Shown: positions 4,338-52,960 of the stretch, piece after piece
Position numbering within the stretch: the first letter of the stretch is position 1
How the letters are laid out: each line of letters starts with the position of its first letter
Virus genome (UHGV): UHGV-0318153
DNA: 64,000 nucleotides
Strand: one strand, 5' to 3'
Origin: a virus
Program-made: the position numbers and the translations under genes
The notes under the pieces: model-generated
Told to the model about the DNA's origin: nothing
The model's input: only the letters and a program-made list of their open reading frames with translations
The model's database searches: none

Positions 4338-4966
4338 TTTTCTAAATATTTATTAGTTACATAAATACAATAATCATTTATTTTGATATTTATCTTATTA
4401 TTTATATTATAAAGTTTTTGTTCTTTATTAAGATTTTCATTATAAATAATATCTATCAATACATCTTTAATTTCATTTTTCCAATCTACTTTTATATAAT
4501 TAGTAATAGGATTTACATCAGTATGATAAAGTATTAATGCACTATACAAACTATAATATTCAGCATTAACAATATCTTCAATATTATCTAATATGTTTTG
4601 TTTATTAATCTGAATATTATTTGCAATAATAGTATCAGTACCAAATTTTATAACAGAATTAGCAGATGATTTAAACAAATGTTTAATAGCATTTACACAT
4701 CTTTCTTTATCTTTATCTATTATATTTTTTGTTGTCAATGTTATAAAATCACTAATTGTAGAAATACTATCAACTAATTTTTGATTAATAATTATTTGAT
4801 GCTTTTTTACTTCTTCTTCTTTATTATGTTTTTTAATTTCTTTATAAGTATCAATTATTTTAGCAATAACAAGATAAATACCAACAACAATAGCAGACCA
4901 AATTCCTTGTTCTATAGCACTATTCATCAAATCCATAAAAACATATACAATAAAAGGAGTTACCAA
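4331..4966 (-). CDS. hypothetical protein with an N-terminal transmembrane helix (211 aa)
   Basis: ORF; hydrophobic N-terminus (IWSAIVVGIYLVIAKII). Confidence 0.55.
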   Translation of the reverse strand: MVTPFIVYVFMDLMNSAIEQGIWSAIVVGIYLVIAKIIDTYKEIKKHNKEEEVKKHQIIINQKLVDSISTISDFITLTTKNIIDKDKERCVNAIKHLFKSSANSVIKFGTDTIIANNIQINKQNILDNIEDIVNAEYYSLYSALILYHTDVNPITNYIKVDWKNEIKDVLIDIIYNENLNKEQKLYNINNKINIKINDYCIYVTNKYLEKC

Positions 4967-10488: not shown

Positions 10489-10805
10489 ATTTATATACGT
10501 TTAATTATTATTATGAAAACAAATATATTCATCATCAATTATATCAGCAATCCATATCGACAAGCCCATTATCAGCAATTTATTATCATTGGTGCAAAAT
10601 GTTATAAATGAGCCGAAATGAGCCGATTCTTTTTGCTTCTGTGCCACTTATTTGCAGTTAGTGGACAATTCATCAGAAATGCCGTAAAACGCCGGCAAAG
10701 AGCCTGAAAATCGGTCAAAATCTAGTCAAAAAATAAAGTCTGACATCATTCATCACGAACAATATCAGACTTATCATTAACATTTATAGCAATACGTCTT
10801 TCGGT

Positions 10806-17419: not shown

Positions 17420-18417
17420 TACATTTCAAGTTTAAATTGTTGTTTAACTTCATTAGCTTTAAGTTTCATTTTTCTATCAGCTAAAATTTTATCTATCTCT
17501 GCACTTCTATAAGGCATAACATAAAATTTAGTTTTCTCAATAGGATTATCTTTTATATGATAAAGACCATCTTCAAATCTTTTCGGCATACCATATTCAT
17601 TAAGTTCATAATCACAATCTATATGTAACAACCATAAACCTTTTAATGTCATACCTGTTATAATTTCTACAGCTTTAGCATATAAACTAATTTGTAAATT
17701 ATATATAGAACCATTACAATTATCCATATGAGTTAATGGTGGTAATAATGTTTCTTTTTTTTGCACCCAAATATTAGTTAATTGAATAGGATTTTGTTTT
17801 TTATCTTTTTTATAAAATCCTGCTTCAAACTTTAAACCATCTCTATTCGACTTATAATCTCCAACAACATAATTTCCATCATCTCTAACTAATAACACGT
17901 CAATAGTTCCAGATATTAAATAATCTATTAAGAAAAAACCTATTTCAGCATATATTTTATATCCAGCATTTGTATATTTTTCATAAACAGAATATACATC
18001 AGGATATTTATTATTAGTTAATTCAATAAAATCTTTTATATTTAATAATTTATATTTAGCTTGTATATTATTTAAATCAGCAACAGTTATCATTTCACCA
18101 TCTTTTGTGCCATAATATTTAACAGCTTGTTGAAATTGACTACTATTGCGAACAGCATCTTCTAAATTATTATGAACTTTATTACCTGCATTACAAGCAT
18201 AATCTGTTATTTCTTTCCATTTATTTTCTAATTCTTTTACACTAATTCCACTTTCTTTTGCTTTTTTATGAAGCCAATATTCTTTATTAAATTTTGGAAC
18301 ATAATCATGTAATAATTGAGTAGTAGATTTATAAGAATTACCTAAACTATCTGTATATTTATGTTCAGCTTCATTAAAAAACAATCTAACATCATTATAT
18401 ATTTTAGGTATCTCCAT
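17419..18417 (-). CDS. PD-(D/E)XK (RecB/Cas4-like) nuclease. The likely start is MEIPK at 18417; the track ORF extends to 18462.
   Basis: The N-terminal EHKY..G..YKSTTQLL motif is typical of phage RecB-family exonucleases. The D...GDYK catalytic motif is present (IDVLLVRDDGNYVVGDYKS). Confidence 0.6.
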   Translation of the reverse strand: MEIPKIYNDVRLFFNEAEHKYTDSLGNSYKSTTQLLHDYVPKFNKEYWLHKKAKESGISVKELENKWKEITDYACNAGNKVHNNLEDAVRNSSQFQQAVKYYGTKDGEMITVADLNNIQAKYKLLNIKDFIELTNNKYPDVYSVYEKYTNAGYKIYAEIGFFLIDYLISGTIDVLLVRDDGNYVVGDYKSNRDGLKFEAGFYKKDKKQNPIQLTNIWVQKKETLLPPLTHMDNCNGSIYNLQISLYAKAVEIITGMTLKGLWLLHIDCDYELNEYGMPKRFEDGLYHIKDNPIEKTKFYVMPYRSAEIDKILADRKMKLKANEVKQQFKLEM

Positions 18418-19147
18418 AATAAAACTTCCATTTAAAACCACCACAAAGAGTTCCTCTACCATTACAACATCTAGATATATTTTGATAATTTAAATTATTA
18501 TCTTTTCCAGCTTCTGCAATACTATCATAAATCTTTATAATTTCATTTGTCTTATTATTTATTTTAGCTATACGCTTTTTATGAGCGGAAACCTCATTCA
18601 AATTATTTAAATCATCTTCATATCTAAATATAAAACCTTTAACAGTTTGTTGTCCTTTTCTATGAGAACAACAATTTGCAACTTCACCTCTTGTAGCACC
18701 AATGGTTAATTCTGCATCATGAGTGCTATCAAATATATAAATTAATTTTTTAGTATGTTTATCAAATTGATAAACCTTTTTACCTTGAGAATAAGTAGTG
18801 TTATCTTTAGCAGTCATCCAATTTAAATTAGATGCTCTATTATCTGTTTTAATTTCATTAATATGATTTACTTGTGATAAATTATTTGGATTTGGAACAA
18901 ATAACATGGCAACAATTCTATGTACAGGATATGTTTTACCTTCTATTAAAGCCATGACATATCCTGTTTTTGGATTAGGAGTATTAAATACTATTTTAGC
19001 TTTTCCACTTTTAATAGATTTAATTCTACCCATATTACTAACAAAATAACCTTTAAATTCTTTCCAAATTTCATTCGGTAAATCTTCTACAGTATTTGTA
19101 TAAAAATTATTTTGTTTATTTGAAAGCGAAAAATTAAATTTAACCAT
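18404..19147 (-). CDS. HNH homing endonuclease (NUMOD4 + HNH_3 + C-terminal NUMOD1-like DNA-binding module)
   Basis: NUMOD4 GYFVSNMGRIKS, HNH region HRIVAMLFVPNP...VNHINEIKTDNRASNLNWMT, and C-terminal GEVANCCSHRKGQQTVKGFIFRY. Confidence 0.8.
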   Translation of the reverse strand: MVKFNFSLSNKQNNFYTNTVEDLPNEIWKEFKGYFVSNMGRIKSIKSGKAKIVFNTPNPKTGYVMALIEGKTYPVHRIVAMLFVPNPNNLSQVNHINEIKTDNRASNLNWMTAKDNTTYSQGKKVYQFDKHTKKLIYIFDSTHDAELTIGATRGEVANCCSHRKGQQTVKGFIFRYEDDLNNLNEVSAHKKRIAKINNKTNEIIKIYDSIAEAGKDNNLNYQNISRCCNGRGTLCGGFKWKFYYGDT

Positions 19148-20853: not shown

Positions 20854-21077
20854 TTAATTCCTAGTTCTCCAAGATTAAACTTTCTATTAGTTTTAACTTT
20901 AATTTCTTCTCTAGTTTCTTCTTTAGCTTTTATAACAGCATTTTGTCTTTTATTTTTACTTATAAATGCTTCAGCTCTTTCAATAACTTTATTCATATCA
21001 TTATCATTTATAATTTCATCAATACAATTATAAGTAATATTATTGAGATAAACAATAGCTGTAACAATTTTTAACAA
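20838..21077 (-). CDS. hypothetical protein (79 aa), first gene of the minus-strand block
   Basis: ORF at the edge of the non-coding origin-like region. Confidence 0.4.
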   Translation of the reverse strand: MLKIVTAIVYLNNITYNCIDEIINDNDMNKVIERAEAFISKNKRQNAVIKAKEETREEIKVKTNRKFNLGELGINCITK

Positions 21078-21167
21078 TTAAGCTGATTAATAACATCTAT
21101 ATAAATCTATCTTATATTATATATCTTATATAGATATATTATCTATATTATATATTATATTATTATA

Positions 21168-21216
<49 letters not shown>

Positions 21217-21274
21217 CTATAATAAGCTAATATAAAGACAGGTTTATAGCTAATATAACAGAAGATAAATATGA

Positions 21275-21600
21275 TTATATAAGAGAAGATGAATATAATA
21301 AACCCCCTATTAAAGATGATGATTGAATAATCCCCCCTATGTTTATAGATAATAAAGAGAAAGTAAAATAAGAAACAAGAGAATAATATAATAGAAGATA
21401 AAGATAATAAGATATAAAGTAAAACGATGAAGATAATGAAAATGATAACATGAAAGTAAAAATAGAGATGAAAATTATAAAGGCAGTAAAAAAGATAATA
21501 AAGAAGGTGAAAGTAGAAATGAAGAGAATAAAGATAATGAAAATGTAAATAATAAACATGATGATGTAAAATGGAAATGAAGAAAATAAAGAAGATGATG
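21275..21600 (+). repeat. Polypurine (A/G-only) tract of ~330 bp with internal GAAGATAATGAAAATG-type repeats
   Basis: Almost no C/T occur on the plus strand here. The ORF-track hit 21275..21559 (MFIIYIFIIF...) is a low-complexity artefact. Confidence 0.8.
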
Positions 21601-21605
21601 TAAAA

Positions 21606-22050
21606 ATAGAAATTAGAATTTAGAATTTATAGTTGTGAAAGTGAAGCTATGTATAAGAATCTCTGTACTTTAAAATTGATTAAAGATTCTCTATATACAA
21701 TAGATAATTATAATAATAAAGATAAAGATATTAAAAATAATTCAATTAATAAAATATATAAAGAATGAAGTAAAATTATAATGATTTAAAATAATGAAGA
21801 TATAATAGAGTTTACCCTTTCTAAAAGTGATTGAACATCCTCTTATATAATAGGGGATTATGATAAGGATATTAAAAATAATTCAAGTAATAAAGCAGGT
21901 GAAGAATAAAGTAAAAATTATAATTATTTGAACGATAAAGATGTAGTAGAGTTTATAGTAAAATTTAGAATTTATAGTTATAAAGATGAGGCTATGTATG
22001 ATAGACCCCCGCCCTTCTAAAATTGATTGAACACCCCCTATAGCTAAAGT
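21606..22050. repeat. 2–3 imperfect ~175-bp tandem repeats (iteron-like)
   Basis: tttagaatttatagtt...ctatgtat occurs twice (21619, 21968). ctttctaaaa(t/g)tgattgaaca occurs three times (21653, 21823, 22013). gataa(a/g)gatattaaaaataattcaa occurs twice (21725, 21872). Confidence 0.7.
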
Positions 22051-22084
22051 TGGAAAAAATAACAAAGTTGATTATTCTCATGGT

Positions 22085-22131
22085 AATAACATAAAAGATT
22101 TTGCAGTCGATGTTGATTGTGCTAAAACTGA
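22085..22131 (+). promoter_or_regulatory. Conserved ~45-bp element AATRACATAAAAGATTTTGC(A/C)G..GATG.TG, copy 1 of 4: promoter/operator candidate
   Basis: Four similar copies (22085, 22504, 23397, 23439), each upstream of a plus-strand gene. Confidence 0.35.
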
Positions 22132-22503
22132 TAATTATGGAATACGTAGAAAATGATTTTACTGATGCTTTAATAGAAGTTATATGTGGTGAGAAAATCA
22201 TCGAAGATGAAAATACCACAACTGAGAGTTATAATGTCATTGATGATGACGATGTTTATCCTTTTTAAATTATTAATCATGAAAAAGATTATCTTGAAGT
22301 CTTTGGCTACTATCTTCTTGCTGATAGTAGCTGTGGTATTTGCGATTGGTTATCTTAATTATTATCATGTAGATAGTGTTAATACAATGCTGTGTGCTAT
22401 AGTTAGTGGTTGTGCTTTTCTTACTAATGTGTTTTATGTCACAGATTAAATTAATGATTAGGCTGGTGTTATACCAGCTTAACTAAAATGTGACATCTCA
22501 TAT

Positions 22504-22550
22504 TAATGACATAAAAGATTTTGCCGATGATGTGTGTCGGTTATAATTTT
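22504..22550 (+). promoter_or_regulatory. Conserved ~45-bp element, copy 2: 72 bp upstream of the 22576 gene
   Basis: Same motif family. Confidence 0.35.
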
Positions 22551-22575
22551 ATTAACAATTTAATACTTAATTATT

Positions 22576-23742: not shown

Positions 23743-24333
23743 ATGAAAAAACCAACATTTAACTTTTCTAGTAATCCAGCTATTAAAGGACTTACTAAAA
23801 CAGAAAAACAAGCTGTTGCTAATTATGTTTCTTCAGAACTTGATGATGCTGCTAAATGGGTAAAACTTATTAAACCTATGCCATTTGATATTAATCTTGA
23901 AGAATATGTTAAAACTAAAGCATTTATTCTAACAGATGGTAGTACATTTAATATTGATTGTATTACTTATGAAAGAGGTAAATATTGTATTGTTTCACCT
24001 GATATATTTGAAGTATTATCTAATATTAAATCAGAAATAGCTACTAATATTGTTACATTTATTGCTCGCAATATTAAATATAATAGCAATATTATTGTTA
24101 TTAGCGATGATGATGTAGATATTATTACTAAAAATCGACAAGTGTTTGACCGTAATATTAGACAATTATGTTCTTATGAAGTATTAGCTAGAACTACTAG
24201 AAAAGATACATTTATTGTTAATCCTAAATATATTCTTTATGGTAGATATGATGAATTTATGAGACATTATAAGAAATTGTATGAAAATAAAGATATTGAG
24301 ACAAATAAATATGGTAGAATAGTTATAAAATGA
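23743..24333 (+). CDS. hypothetical protein (196 aa). The N-terminus carries TFNFSS.
   Basis: ORF. Confidence 0.55.
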   Translation: MKKPTFNFSSNPAIKGLTKTEKQAVANYVSSELDDAAKWVKLIKPMPFDINLEEYVKTKAFILTDGSTFNIDCITYERGKYCIVSPDIFEVLSNIKSEIATNIVTFIARNIKYNSNIIVISDDDVDIITKNRQVFDRNIRQLCSYEVLARTTRKDTFIVNPKYILYGRYDEFMRHYKKLYENKDIETNKYGRIVIK

Positions 24334-26725: not shown

Positions 26726-26763
26726 TTATATGTTTAACTGCAATTTCATAGTAAATAAACAAA

Positions 26764-26793
26764 CTACTCTTGCTTGTGAAAGTAGGAGTAGTT
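26764..26793 (+). terminator. Hairpin actactcTTGCTTGTGAAAGTAGgagtagt, terminator/regulatory
   Basis: Perfect 7-bp stem. The conserved loop is also present at 51183. Confidence 0.4.
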
Positions 26794-26935: not shown

Positions 26936-28282
26936 TTGTTTAACTTAAAATATATATTGATTATGGAAAAGAAATATCCTGTTTTAAAATGTAATGAAGA
27001 ACTTTGGGCAGAAATTAAACCAGTTCTTAATAATCTTGGTGTTAATGATTTTCCTAATGAACTTTTTTCTGATAGTACTAATGATTATAATTATATAGTT
27101 AGTAATTGGGGAACAGAAACATTAGATAAATTAAATATAGGTATAACTTATTATTCTAAAGTTCATAGTATTAATGGTTTACGTTATCTTGTAAATACTA
27201 AAGAAGAATTTCTTTCTGCTGTTGCTAAACTTCTTGGTAAAGAATATCCTATTAAAGAAGAAACTGAACAATTTAATGGAGCTATTAAATATCCTTATAT
27301 TAAATGTACTCAACGATTATATGATAGAATAAAAGATATTCTTGAAATTGTTGGTTATAATACTATATATGTAGATAAAATAACAGAAGACGCTAATGAA
27401 CTTATTATTAATTATGCTGATAATTTTGGGGATGTTACAAATTTGCTTGAAAATTGTGCTAATTCAAATAATCGTTATGAATGTTCTAATATTAGAGATT
27501 TTCTTACTGCTGCATGTAAATTAAAAGATTTTGAAGTTTATTATATTGATAATACGGAAGATAATAATTCTGAAAATCATTATTTCGGCTATTGTATAAA
27601 CAAAGAAGATAAAACTATTAGTATTTATGAAAATTTTGAAGAAGATGGTTTACAAGCTATTATAGTAGAAAAATCTGTTGTTCCTAAAAAGAAATTTAAA
27701 AAGAAAAAAGAAAACTATGTTGTTTCTTACGACCCTGCTGTTGGAGAATCTAGTACAGTTGTTGCTACTATTCCAGCAAAAGGTAATGATTTTGATAAAG
27801 ATAAAGGTAGTGATTTAGATATAGATAAGCCTATGGAAAAGATTAATATTGCGGATAAATTAAAACATTGTAAGAAAGGTACTAAACTTTATAGTCCTTT
27901 GTTTGGCGAAGTTGAATTTGAAAATGTTGATGATAAAATAGAAATAATTACACATACCGATGAAGAAGAAATATATAAAGCATATTTTGAAAAAGATGGT
28001 AAATATTATATAATTTATAAAGATGCTGAATGTCTTTTATTTCCTTCTAAAGATAATCGAGATTGGAATAATTTTCAAGTTCTTAAATCAGGGCATCATG
28101 TAATGGTTTCTGATGATGCACATGATTGGTGTTTAAGATTATATGTTACTGATAATAAAACTATTCATTTTAATTCAGATGATGATAAAGATGAAATGAC
28201 ATGGAAATATATTGTTCCTGTAGAAGATTTTGATTTTACTGCTGAAGATATTACTATTAATAAAGAAAAATCTATTATATAA
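26936..28282 (+). CDS. hypothetical protein (448 aa; start possibly MEKKYPV at 26963)
   Basis: Long ORF. Confidence 0.6.
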   Translation: MFNLKYILIMEKKYPVLKCNEELWAEIKPVLNNLGVNDFPNELFSDSTNDYNYIVSNWGTETLDKLNIGITYYSKVHSINGLRYLVNTKEEFLSAVAKLLGKEYPIKEETEQFNGAIKYPYIKCTQRLYDRIKDILEIVGYNTIYVDKITEDANELIINYADNFGDVTNLLENCANSNNRYECSNIRDFLTAACKLKDFEVYYIDNTEDNNSENHYFGYCINKEDKTISIYENFEEDGLQAIIVEKSVVPKKKFKKKKENYVVSYDPAVGESSTVVATIPAKGNDFDKDKGSDLDIDKPMEKINIADKLKHCKKGTKLYSPLFGEVEFENVDDKIEIITHTDEEEIYKAYFEKDGKYYIIYKDAECLLFPSKDNRDWNNFQVLKSGHHVMVSDDAHDWCLRLYVTDNKTIHFNSDDDKDEMTWKYIVPVEDFDFTAEDITINKEKSII

Positions 28283-50696: not shown

Positions 50697-50888
50697 ATGG
50701 AAGAAGAAATTGTTGGAATTTATGATGAAGATGGACAAGGTTATATTTGTGATTGTCCTATATGTGGTAATACTGTTCATATAGAAGAATATGCAGATGA
50801 TGAAACAATAGATATGATTACTGATAATGAAGTAGTTGAAATCTATTGCGATAAATGTGATAGTTATTTTGAAGCTCAATTAAGTTAG
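50697..50888 (+). CDS. zinc-ribbon protein (63 aa)
   Basis: CDCPICGN...CDKCD. Confidence 0.45.
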   Translation: MEEEIVGIYDEDGQGYICDCPICGNTVHIEEYADDETIDMITDNEVVEIYCDKCDSYFEAQLS

Positions 50889-50925
50889 AAAGGAGGTGAA
50901 TATGAAAAAGATGTAATAGATAGTA

Positions 50926-51109
50926 TAGCTTGCCCGTAGAGGATATGAGATAATGCTACATTCCCTACGGGCAAGATACTGCCAGTAAATGTTATAATTT
51001 AGTTATTATTAATATTGACAATTTAGTTATTGTTGATATTACAGCTTGCCCGTAGGGAAGTGATGATATAGCTAGCTATCATGCCTAGCAATCCTCTACG
51101 GGCAAGCTA
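50926..51109. repeat. Cluster of four dispersed-repeat copies arranged as two inverted-repeat hairpins (R 50926-50944 / F 50961-50975; R 51042-51059 / F 51091-51109)
   Basis: AGCTTGCCCGTAGAGGA...TTCCCTACGGGCAAG and AGCTTGCCCGTAGGGAA...TCCTCTACGGGCAAGCT. The stems are at least 11 bp perfect. Confidence 0.9.
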
Positions 51110-51182
51110 AAATAATCTAATTGATATTGGAAAAATGAAAGATATTAAAGATACTGTTGTTGATTTAAGTATTAAATTTATT

Positions 51183-51220
51183 GCCGCTATTGCTTGTGAA
51201 AGTAGTAGCGGTTTTATTTG
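51183..51220 (+). terminator. Hairpin gccgctaTTGCTTGTGAAAGTAGtagcgg + TTTTATTTG, sharing its loop with the 26764 hairpin
   Basis: Read from the sequence. Confidence 0.45.
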
Positions 51221-51321
51221 TGATATGCTGGAACACCAATATTTTATTATATATAATAATATTATTAAGGAGCTGTAAATAGCTGATTATCAGGCAGTTA
51301 CAAACATTTTGCATCACTCAT

Positions 51322-51378
51322 TGCGTGATTGAAATCTAATTATTATATTTGCAATATCGGTCTGAATCACTTATAGCG
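51322..51378 (+). promoter_or_regulatory. Two copies of the palindromic element (c/a)ATCACT(C/T)AT(T/A)GCGTGATTGAAAT upstream of the 51382 gene
   Basis: catcactcattgcgtgattgaaatc and aatcacttatagcgtgattgaaatt. Each contains the inverted repeat ATCAC...GTGAT. Confidence 0.5.
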
Positions 51379-51381
51379 TGA

Positions 51382-52194
51382 TTGAAATTTTATGTCGAAT
51401 TTAATAATATTGTTATGGGAAAACTTAGTTTTAATGCTAATGAAGTTACTGATAAGAAACTTCTTAAAGAAGCATTTTATAAAGAATTTGAAGAATATTG
51501 GAAAACACTTGAAGAATCAAATGATAATGATTCTATTAATAATGCAATAGAAAATGTTGCTGAATTAAAGAAAAAACAAAAGAAAATAAATGATAGTAAA
51601 TATGTACCTTCTCCTTATGATAGTACAATTAAAGAAAATAGTAAAACTAAAAAAGTTGATAATGTATCATTAACATTTAATAATGATACTGTTTCTTCTC
51701 CTTTTGTTCAATGCAACCCAATAACAGTTCATACTATTTTAAAAGTTAGTAGAGAAATATCTGGTTTTGGTAGAGCAAGACATGATAAATCTTCTGTTGT
51801 TGGAGAAGGCGGTTTAATAAAAATGTATATGTATATTGTTAGTATTGTTAAAAAAGATAGTAATTTTATTAAACTTGATAAAGAACGTGTTATGCAATAT
51901 ACAGGAGTTGGAACAAATGGATATGCAGAATATTTAAGAATATTAAATAGATTAAATGTTCTTGTTGAAATTAAAAATATGAGAAGTTGTTATGTTATAA
52001 ATCATAATGTTATATACAATGGAGATAAAAAGTATTTATGTGAATGGCTTAATAAAGGTAATAAAGTTGAATTGAAAAAAGATGAAAATAAGAATTATAC
52101 TTATATAGAAATAGATGAAAACAATAAAACTAAATTAAATAATATATTTAAGAATACAATATTTGAACCTTTTGAAGAAGCTAAAATTGAATGA
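51382..52194 (+). CDS. hypothetical protein (270 aa)
   Basis: ORF. Confidence 0.5.
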   Translation: MKFYVEFNNIVMGKLSFNANEVTDKKLLKEAFYKEFEEYWKTLEESNDNDSINNAIENVAELKKKQKKINDSKYVPSPYDSTIKENSKTKKVDNVSLTFNNDTVSSPFVQCNPITVHTILKVSREISGFGRARHDKSSVVGEGGLIKMYMYIVSIVKKDSNFIKLDKERVMQYTGVGTNGYAEYLRILNRLNVLVEIKNMRSCYVINHNVIYNGDKKYLCEWLNKGNKVELKKDENKNYTYIEIDENNKTKLNNIFKNTIFEPFEEAKIE

Positions 52195-52842: not shown

Positions 52843-52960
52843 AGTTACTCCATCTTCAATATTAGCAATAATTCTATCAAGTATATTAATACGAAAATGC
52901 CCATAAGGAGCGGCATGATTATTACCATGTCATTCCCTACGGGCAAGTTTCAGTGAGATA

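Follow-up and report, generated by a model that had tools for sequence, protein, structure and literature searches.

Inverted pairs of a dispersed DNA word in a putative control region next to a repL gene of a crAss-like phage

The region analysed here is a largely non-coding stretch at 50.9-51.4 kb of the virus genome UHGV-0318153. The window, i.e. the whole stretch of DNA under study, comprises 64 kb of a crAss-like phage with a G+C content of ~26%, and its replication genes match those of cr11_1, cr110_1, and crAssphage. The region is situated at the end of the replication block, after the dUTPase gene and a few small genes, and downstream of it come one to three small genes and, in convergent orientation, the giant RNA polymerase (RNAP) gene. 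It is best read as a composite cis-control region between the long replication operon and a cassette with the “last-position” repL gene, repL2. All of the elements listed in the original prediction, which had been made from the letters of the window, are present, i.e. the repeat copies, the two hairpins, the palindrome in a loop, the hairpin at 51183, and the two ATCAC palindromes.

A non-coding gap of 246 nucleotides (nt) directly follows the open reading frame (ORF) 50697-50888. It contains four copies of a DNA word, TAGCTTGCCCGTAGRGRAT, i.e. tAGCTTGCCCGTAGRGRAT, in the order + - + -, which combine into two stable inverted pairs (50926/50960 and 51042/51091). Each of the two big hairpins is a convergent pair of this word, which is 13-20 bp long and has the conserved core CCCGTAGRG. 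Copy 1 (50926..50944, plus strand, TAGCTTGCCCGTAGAGGAT, GAG-GAT type) is the 5′ arm of hairpin 1 and the outer arm in the nested fold described below, and copy 2 (50960..50978, minus strand, GGG-AAT type) is the 3′ arm of hairpin 1. Hairpin 2 is composed of copy 3 (51042..51060, plus strand, GGG-AAG type) as the 5′ arm and copy 4 (51091..51109, minus strand, GAG-GAT type) as the 3′ arm, and its loop contains a perfect 12-nt palindrome, ATAGCTAGCTAT (51068..51079). The outer motif pair encloses an AT-rich spacer of 63 bp (50979..51041), which is to be seen against the whole-genome background of 26% G+C. The spacer includes two 21-nt direct repeats of AATTTAGTTATTRTTRATATT (50996-51016 and 51020-51040), and it is kept in a relative with 92% identity.

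The arms of hairpin 1 have a length of 19 nt and are 84% complementary. The predicted pair is real, but its arms are separated by 15 nt instead of 16 nt, and copy 2 starts at 50960 rather than 50961. The extended arms of hairpin 2 (51037-51062 and 51089-51114) have a length of 26 nt and are 81% complementary. Folded as single-stranded DNA, hairpin 1 reached -16.5 kcal/mol (z = -5.9) and hairpin 2 reached -19.8 kcal/mol (z = -5.8), and in both cases none of 200 shuffled sequences was as good. When the whole region was folded as RNA (z = -8.8), the minimum-energy structure was a nested pairing, in which copies 1 and 4 match to 92% over 24 nt and copies 2 and 3 match to 100% over 15 nt. The two outer copies (1 and 4) share the GAG-GAT type and the two inner ones (2 and 3) share the GGG-AA type, so that the nested pairing is the better match, although pairing of adjacent copies, as originally proposed, also gives stable folds. 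A compensatory double change, from C-G to T-A, was found between copies 3 and 4 in the relative IMGVR_UViG_3300045988_110116 (locus L066, in the following “110116”); the other locus labels are L077 for cr11_1, L078 and L101 for crAssphage, and L079 for crAss002.

The word is distributed over the whole window. The core CTTGCCCGTAGRG is present in 24 copies, compared with an expectation of 0.2, on both strands and with a density of about one copy per 2.7 kb. Between 17 and 18 of the 24 copies are located within real ORFs, seven in sense and 10-11 in antisense orientation, and every usable reading frame is represented. They are translated as SLPV(E/G)D, FPTGKL, (I/F)(P/L)YGQA, or SLRAS. Because there are four translations, and both strands and all frames are used, the conserved object is DNA and not a peptide or a polar mRNA signal. 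A protein-level repeat was ruled out by the four different translations, and a role of the dispersed copies as promoters for the virion or the host RNAP was ruled out by their intragenic location in both orientations. A study of phage phi14:2 reported no common early motif and a middle-promoter motif that differs from the word.

The copies are spaced more evenly than expected by chance, with a maximal gap of 5.77 kb in the window (P = 0.009, or 0.0004 when clusters are collapsed). In IMG/VR relatives with 98% and 92% identity, the copies are found in the same positions, and the core is nearly invariant, while the flanks vary. As judged from these comparisons, the core is under purifying selection. 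The variable positions of the word mostly show A/G transitions. Some gain or loss has occurred, e.g. a word site in the ligase linker of a sister clade is missing from the window along with 8-11 extra codons. A mobile insertion of 21 nt is unsupported, as the copies in the relatives are positionally stable and the word is present at the primase site in both clades, with a difference in length of only two to three codons.

Several features of this distribution bear on what kind of factor could act on the word. It is long, asymmetric, and present about once per 3 kb, as might be expected for a nick or modification motif, i.e. the target of a phage enzyme such as a nicking HNH endonuclease, and paired sites would then be hot spots for breaks, recombination, or replication restart. 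Localized single-strand interruptions are known from T5 and phiKMV-like phages, and enzymes of the I-HmuI-like family nick sites that are long and asymmetric. A gene for an I-HmuI-like HNH/NUMOD endonuclease with HNH_3, NUMOD1, NUMOD4, and I-HmuI NUMOD-like domains is present in the structural arm of the window (18404-19147, minus strand). However, known phage nick motifs occur on one strand only, whereas both strands are used about equally here, and convergent copies that are 34-50 bp apart would yield staggered double-strand breaks. Moreover, an annotated HNH gene was not noticed in the corresponding position of the other genomes that were inspected, although no specific test was made for it, and the gene is seemingly not a core gene. 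A nick motif is thus an unlikely explanation.

The tolerance of both orientations and all frames would also be explained by a structured non-coding RNA precursor, the processed fragments of which pair with the dispersed copies in mRNA or DNA in either orientation and act as a guide-like regulator. The A/G transitions at the variable positions are compatible with G-U pairing, and the nested fold is very stable. However, transitions are the commonest mutations anyway, a promoter for such an RNA was not identified, no Rfam family matched anywhere in the window at the gathering score, and no associated RNA-guided protein is known in crAss-like phages. We regard this possibility as quite improbable.

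The search for the exact 18-mer in ~185,000 species genomes yielded no genome in which it is abundant. The matches were the phage itself (in mis-binned form), scattered single hits, and one metagenome-assembled genome (MAG) with at least seven copies. A host uptake sequence or host repeat was ruled out, as the scan did not give a host-like genome rich in the word. This phage, or a near-identical one, is represented by CAAECB010000035/37, two contigs of 63 kb and 21.5 kb in the human-gut MAG “Clostridia bacterium HGM13660” (L036, L040, L043, L050, L053, L057, L059, and L061-L064). This is probably a binning artefact and is therefore no evidence for the host. The MAG with multiple copies is JBLMZC01, “Deltaproteobacteria bacterium MAG213”, with a G+C content of 35%. 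It contains at least seven intergenic copies of AACTTGTCCGTATAGCTTGCCCGTAGGGGATGGAGAAT (L039, L042, L045, L046, L049, L054, and L060) in spacers that are rich in simple repeats. AACTTGTCCGTATAGCTTGCCCGTAGGGGATGGAGAAT includes the exact 18-mer of the window and a crAssphage-like 3′ flank, GATGGAGA.

Variants of the word were found in other crAss-like phages of the Intestiviridae. These lineage-specific dialects share CCCGTAGRGGA, and the 5′ half is specific for the respective lineage. Distant relatives with 65-70% nt identity have CTTGCCCGTAGAG, with the same core and about one copy per 3 kb, and the sister clade, with ~60% amino acid identity, has GGGCTGTTCCCCCGTAGRRGA. In cr11_1 (Delmidovirus), the word is (G)AGACCCCCCGTAGAGGAT or ACTCCCCGTAGAGGA, with 29 copies. 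The prototypical crAssphage (Carjivirus communis) contains 31 copies of GACYCCCCGTRGAGGATGGA, compared with none in shuffled sequences, and the word of crAss002, which belongs to another subfamily, is TTCCCCCRTAAAGG. The orientation is also mixed in crAssphage and cr11_1, and the spacing in crAssphage is again even (maximal gap 7.1 kb, P = 0.003, or 8e-5 with clusters collapsed). One site in the linker of the primase is translated as FLYGQAT in the window; its aligned counterpart in the sister clade is ISYGGTALR, and each of the two is written in the dialect of its own lineage. A single copy just 3′ of the stop codon of the giant RNAP gene (52935..52947, minus strand) has an orthologous copy in the distant relative L015. 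The alignments thus indicate that at least some of the word sites, i.e. those in the primase linker and 3′ of the giant RNAP gene, are orthologous across dialects. A literature search for the word, its variants as strings, and repeats, hairpins, or promoters of crAss-like phages revealed nothing relevant, and the genome-wide word is apparently undescribed in this group.

Two further observations were made in the course of these comparisons. The CCCGTAG word is absent from crAss001 (Steigviridae; L080, MH675552 1-50000), in which CTCCAGAAG, often in the form aCTCCAGAAGga, is found 14 times, with both strands being used; it may represent a distant dialect of reduced length (cf. ACTCC-CCGT-AGAGGA). 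In addition, a G+C-rich, CGCT-rich tract, e.g. TTCGCTTCGCTCCGCT, precedes many of the copies in crAssphage (6022, 28078, 28173, 44954, and 95865) and crAss002 (2841, 19777, 41211, and 44649), mostly in apparent non-coding gaps, and is absent at the copies in the window.

The paired arrangement is also shared. Including the window, five lineages have a convergent pair in the same syntenic position, which is non-coding, the other four being the sister clade (L068, ~10690-10727), cr11_1 (77223/77256), crAssphage (28078/28173), and crAss002 (19740/19777). At the opposite end of the replication block, a second pair is located in a non-coding gap between divergent genes in crAssphage (95746/95865, directly upstream of the repL gene gp88) and in cr11_1 (11912/12042). 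In crAssphage, each repL gene has an upstream pair around an AT-rich spacer of 70-103 bp. Apart from the relatives of the window itself (L006 and L031), IMG/VR contains 20 further loci with close convergent pairs, which are mostly non-coding. RepL-like genes lie 0.25-1.5 kb from the pairs in 7 of the 20, from about three or four hairpin families and thus from several independent lineages. Inter-genus homology of the AT-rich spacers was considered, but the alignment is of too low complexity for a call. The claim that the region is the only place with paired repeats holds for close inverted pairs within the window, but relatives have a divergent pair just outside of it, 119 nt apart in an ORF of 1445 amino acids (L030, 1221(-)/1340(+)). 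The corresponding pair in cr11_1 is 9330(-)/9488(+); in both genomes, the pair (119-158 nt apart) lies in a similar place within a large gene upstream of the RNAP gene, and the copies read SSTGKL and SLPVED. The original prediction had thus missed that the repeat is mostly intragenic, that it is a family-wide signal with dialects, and that its paired arrangement is syntenic in other genera.

The architecture of doublets and singlets, together with the GTAG tetranucleotides that occur within the word, resembles selfish elements of the REPIN or miniature inverted-repeat transposable element type, in which the inverted doublet would be the mobile unit and the singlets would be decayed remnants. 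The intergenic repeat of a related word in the bacterial MAG also fits this idea. However, about three quarters of the copies are intragenic, the core is under purifying selection, the singlets are evenly spaced as well, and the positional conservation across clades largely refutes it. A RAYT or IS200-type gene was not noticed in the regions examined, although no search aimed at one was made. We therefore consider a selfish origin to be very unlikely.

The pairs could be sites on the DNA, or they could act in the RNA. In the latter case, the pairs in the 3′ untranslated region of the replication operon would form stems that act as terminators or insulators of transcription, shield the 3′ end, or are cleaved as RNase III-type sites. 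The word would be spread over the genome for another reason and would have been co-opted in pairs, as are uptake sequences in terminators of Neisseria and Haemophilus. A long co-directional operon indeed ends at the locus, the folds are very stable, and close pairs are nearly always found in non-coding DNA. The pairs of crAss002, cr11_1, and L068 are compact hairpins, in crAss002 and L068 with loops of 8-13 nt, and a stem length of 21-24 bp is sufficient for RNase III. In L069, a hairpin based on CCCGTAG/CTACGGG is followed by a T run and thus has the shape of an intrinsic terminator. However, neither of the two hairpins in the window sequence is followed by such a tract, i.e. the motif hairpins do not have this shape here, and a separate stem-loop of the canonical terminator type is present 75 nt downstream. 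In four of the five genomes, the motif hairpin is preceded by another hairpin that has a T run and that was taken, on visual inspection, for an intrinsic terminator; the motif hairpin is therefore not needed in this role. AT-rich loops of 55-130 nt are atypical of terminators. Furthermore, pairs are also found in divergent gaps of the promoter or origin type, where no transcripts should end, and this favours a site on the DNA. An RNA boundary element is nevertheless a realistic possibility; a role at the RNA 3′ end is nearly as likely as the DNA site and represents the main rival.

The stem-loop downstream of the motif hairpins (51183..51220, plus strand) consists of a covarying basal stem, the apex UUGCUU-GUGA-AAGUAG, and the U tract TTTATTTG, i.e. 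its hairpin part (51183-51212) together with TTTATTTG has the form of an intrinsic terminator, a G+C-rich stem-loop with a U tract immediately behind it. The TTGTGAAAGTAG hairpin had been correctly recognized at 51183, but it is not unique, as a second member is found at 26761-26793. In total, five family members were identified, the two in the window and one each in cr11_1 (~27156-27189, minus strand), crAss002 (~19010-19041), and crAssphage (L078, ~4486-4517). Nine of the 14 basal stem pairs show double changes, 97% of the cells are paired, and none of 500 shuffles was as good. The apex, a GNRA tetraloop with two G-U wobbles, shows no or hardly any variation. The members are usually located at the 3′ ends of genes, and a U-rich tract follows three of the five, including the one at 51183. 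Rfam has no match to the family, which is conserved across the Intestiviridae and probably acts as a terminator, the apex of which is recognised. The stem-loop lies within an ORF of 47 amino acids (51135-51278), which is probably spurious, as it holds the conserved structure and this structure is intergenic in cr11_1; a single in-frame 3-nt indel in 110116 gives weak coding support.

The gene repL2 (51415..52194, plus strand) encodes a RepL-like replication initiator of 259 amino acids, counted from the ATG at 51415. Its product matches crAssphage gp43 in BLASTP (E = 3e-8), and gp43 in turn matches the Pfam family RepL with 36.6 bits (cut-off 20.3). A first-position repL gene is also present in the window (23743-24333), so that the two-repL layout described for C. 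communis (Schmidtke et al. 2024, PMC10983915) is reproduced, in which the forward block starts with one of the two genes and ends with the other.

Two copies of the palindrome ATCAC-N7-GTGAT, operator- or iteron-like in appearance, precede repL2 (51313..51329 and 51366..51382, 53 bp apart). Their presence had been noted before, but they do not form stable hairpins (z = -0.35) and look like protein-binding sites on duplex DNA. Between them lies TATATTTG (51344..51351, plus strand), a match to the Bacteroidetes -7 promoter element, which has the consensus TAnnTTTG. A comparison with 110116 (L066 9860-10720 versus window 51311-52194) was informative. The two genomes are otherwise 91-95% identical at the nt level, and the flanks of the cassette are 92-94% identical, but the repL2 alleles have an amino acid identity of 44%. 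The last-position repL gene thus appears as a hypervariable cassette. In 110116, the palindromes are ATCCC-N7-GGGAT and TTCCC-N7-GGGAT, in the same places around the same TATATTTG box, which is kept although its surroundings have been replaced, and the motif hairpins are unchanged. As the palindromes co-vary with the repL2 allele, they are likely to be the operators or iterons of RepL2 itself, which points away from the dispersed word. From the sequence comparison, RepL2 would probably bind the ATCAC-N7-GTGAT palindromes as its operators or iterons. RepL as the reader of the word was ruled out, because the same dialect is found together with repL alleles that are 44% identical and with crAssphage repL paralogues, which are ~25% identical (PMC10983915). 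Two features of iteron origins, i.e. an adjacent Rep gene and repeated sites that track its allele, are present, and the sites in question are the palindromes and not the word hairpins. With its operators or iterons, repL2 conforms to an arrangement that is known and not unusual. The proposal that the region is a regulatory hub was borne out by the covarying stem-loop with its U tract and by the -7 box between operator-like palindromes that co-vary with the repL2 allele.

Directly before hairpin 1, a perfect Shine-Dalgarno (SD)-like sequence, AAAGGAGGTGA, is followed by a mini-ORF of four codons, ATG AAA AAG ATG TAA (MKKM*), at 50889..50917 on the plus strand. AAGGAGGT occurs only twice in the 64-kb window, and the element of SD motif and mini-ORF is kept in 110116. 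A perfect SD motif is unexpected for a phage of SD-poor Bacteroidota hosts.

Taken together, we tentatively favour the reading that the hairpin cluster is a DNA-level cis site for replication or maintenance beside repL2, at a probability somewhat short of even. A factor, probably encoded by the phage, would read the word on duplex DNA. Genes for an IHF-like heterodimer, which are located outside of the window, are putative candidates for such a reader. The four clustered, inverted copies, which flank an AT-rich segment with two 21-nt repeats, would form a strong cooperative site for this putative reader, and such a site could be a cis element of the replication or maintenance type, similar to a secondary origin, beside repL2. 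RepL2 would most likely bind the ATCAC-N7-GTGAT palindromes on either side of the repL2 promoter and not the dispersed word, and the GNRA-capped stem-loop at 51183-51220 with its U tract would be the actual terminator of the upstream operon.

Several points weigh against the DNA-level site. The reader of the word is a candidate factor only, and the role in replication is putative. The word occurs genome-wide and is not specific for origins. The association of pairs with repL is confounded, as pairs need non-coding DNA, which is concentrated at strand-switch zones with repL genes. The first repL gene of the window has no motif pair upstream, RepL was not detectable near the pairs in crAss002 and L068, and the pairs in these two genomes are the tight hairpins mentioned above, which lack an AT-rich spacer. 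The hairpin with a T run in L069 fits a terminator, and the lone compensatory change in 110116 could be due to quasipalindrome correction and is no proof of function. For C. communis, an origin predicted by Ori-Finder is placed at one of the two gaps with a pair upstream of repL (Schmidtke et al., PMC10983915), which speaks for a site of this type, but the coverage and Ori-Finder evidence for crAssphage points to the other repL gene, not the last-position one. Finally, the GC skew does not change at 50.9-51.4 kb. The check that had been suggested for an origin at this place gave switches at ~21 kb and ~52.7 kb instead, which coincide with switches of the gene strand. The earlier proposal of an origin thus remains plausible in view of the RepL-like gene downstream and of the crAssphage pairs upstream of both repL genes, but it is weakened by the missing skew switch and the genome-wide word.

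A likelier primary origin or promoter zone is located at 21050-22570, an AT-rich non-coding region of 1.5 kb that precedes the first repL gene and coincides with a divergent strand switch and with the minimum of the GC skew. It has no motif pair. It holds a (TA)n microsatellite (~21180-21215) and repeated C-rich boxes, namely ACCCCCTAT and two copies of CTTCTAAAAnTGATTGAACAyCCyC.

It had also been suggested that the region is close to a pac or cos site. Apart from the fact that it is a structured non-coding region, nothing was found in favour of such a site or of a genome terminus. The word is dispersed, a signature of terminal repeats was not seen, and the region of the terminase genes is far away, as deduced from the synteny with cr11_1 and crAssphage. 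This is the least probable of the explanations, and we give it hardly any weight.

The hairpin locus thus exposes part of a signal that extends over the genome and has apparently not been described. The even spacing of the word, the use of all frames, the orthologous sites, and the concerted drift point to a strong, unrecognised sequence-reading process across the genome. A wider possibility, which we consider less likely than not, is that crAss-like phages of the Intestiviridae, including crAssphage, carry an undescribed genome-wide self-tag, i.e. an evenly spaced word of 12-20 bp that tolerates any frame, the 5′ half of which shifts in concert while the sites remain fixed. It would be read by a machine encoded by the phage, with the pairs beside repL as the master site. 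This machine could be a Chi- or uptake-like reader that distinguishes self from non-self, a maintenance or silencing protein that coats the genome as part of a phage-plasmid lifestyle, or a guide RNA that is made from the hairpin locus. No viruses of the human gut are more abundant than the crAss-like phages, the replication, persistence, and expression control of which are largely unknown. The word could be used as bait for finding the protein or RNA that reads it, and the dialect could serve as a marker for the classification of lineages. The motif pairs, the RepL operators, and the terminator family provide defined cis elements for tests of the proposed phage-plasmid lifestyle and for crAss-based vectors.

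A comparison with known systems reveals partial similarities. DNA uptake sequences (DUS) of Neisseria and uptake signal sequences (USS) of Haemophilus have a conserved core of 10-12 nt with weaker flanks, occur about once per 1-3 kb on both strands and in coding regions in all frames, form intergenic inverted pairs, exist in dialects, and are evenly spaced. They show the closest resemblance, as density, use of strands and frames, intergenic pairs, dialects with orthologous positions, and even spacing are all shared. In contrast, the word resides in a phage genome and not in a competent bacterium, no uptake machinery is involved, and because the 18-mer is not abundant in the ~185,000 species genomes, the word is not a host uptake signal. 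The stoperators of Cluster A mycobacteriophages (L5/Bxb1) are asymmetric sites of ~13 bp with 20-35 copies, some of them intragenic, the clade variants of which co-evolve with the repressor, and one set of sites doubles as the true operator. The asymmetric word of ~13 bp, the tens of copies, and the clade-specific variants are similar, but stoperators follow the direction of transcription, whereas the orientation of the word is mixed, and no repressor is known in crAss-like phages. The short, GTAG-containing repeats with hairpin-forming doublets and singlets are reminiscent of REP/REPIN-RAYT systems; the word does not belong to this family because most of its copies lie within genes, keep their positions from genus to genus, and are evenly spaced.

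Other similarities concern the locus itself. A RepL-like gene and repeated palindromes, along with a segment that is AT-rich in a genome of only 26% G+C, are shared with the RepL/P1 oriL system, with iteron origins of the lambda O type, and with the predicted origins of C. communis. However, oriL lies inside repL, the prediction for C. communis concerns the other repL gene, and the dispersed word is not specific for RepL. With the palA/ssoA single-strand origins of rolling-circle plasmids, including those of the RepL-encoding pSN2 family, the locus has in common that an extensive imperfect palindrome (130-190 nt) is found in the non-coding sequence next to a rep gene, but the conserved RS-B and CS-6 (TAGCGT) elements are not recognisable in it. 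The genome-wide word thus appears to be a new variant of a dispersed recognition word, in phages for which nothing similar has been reported.

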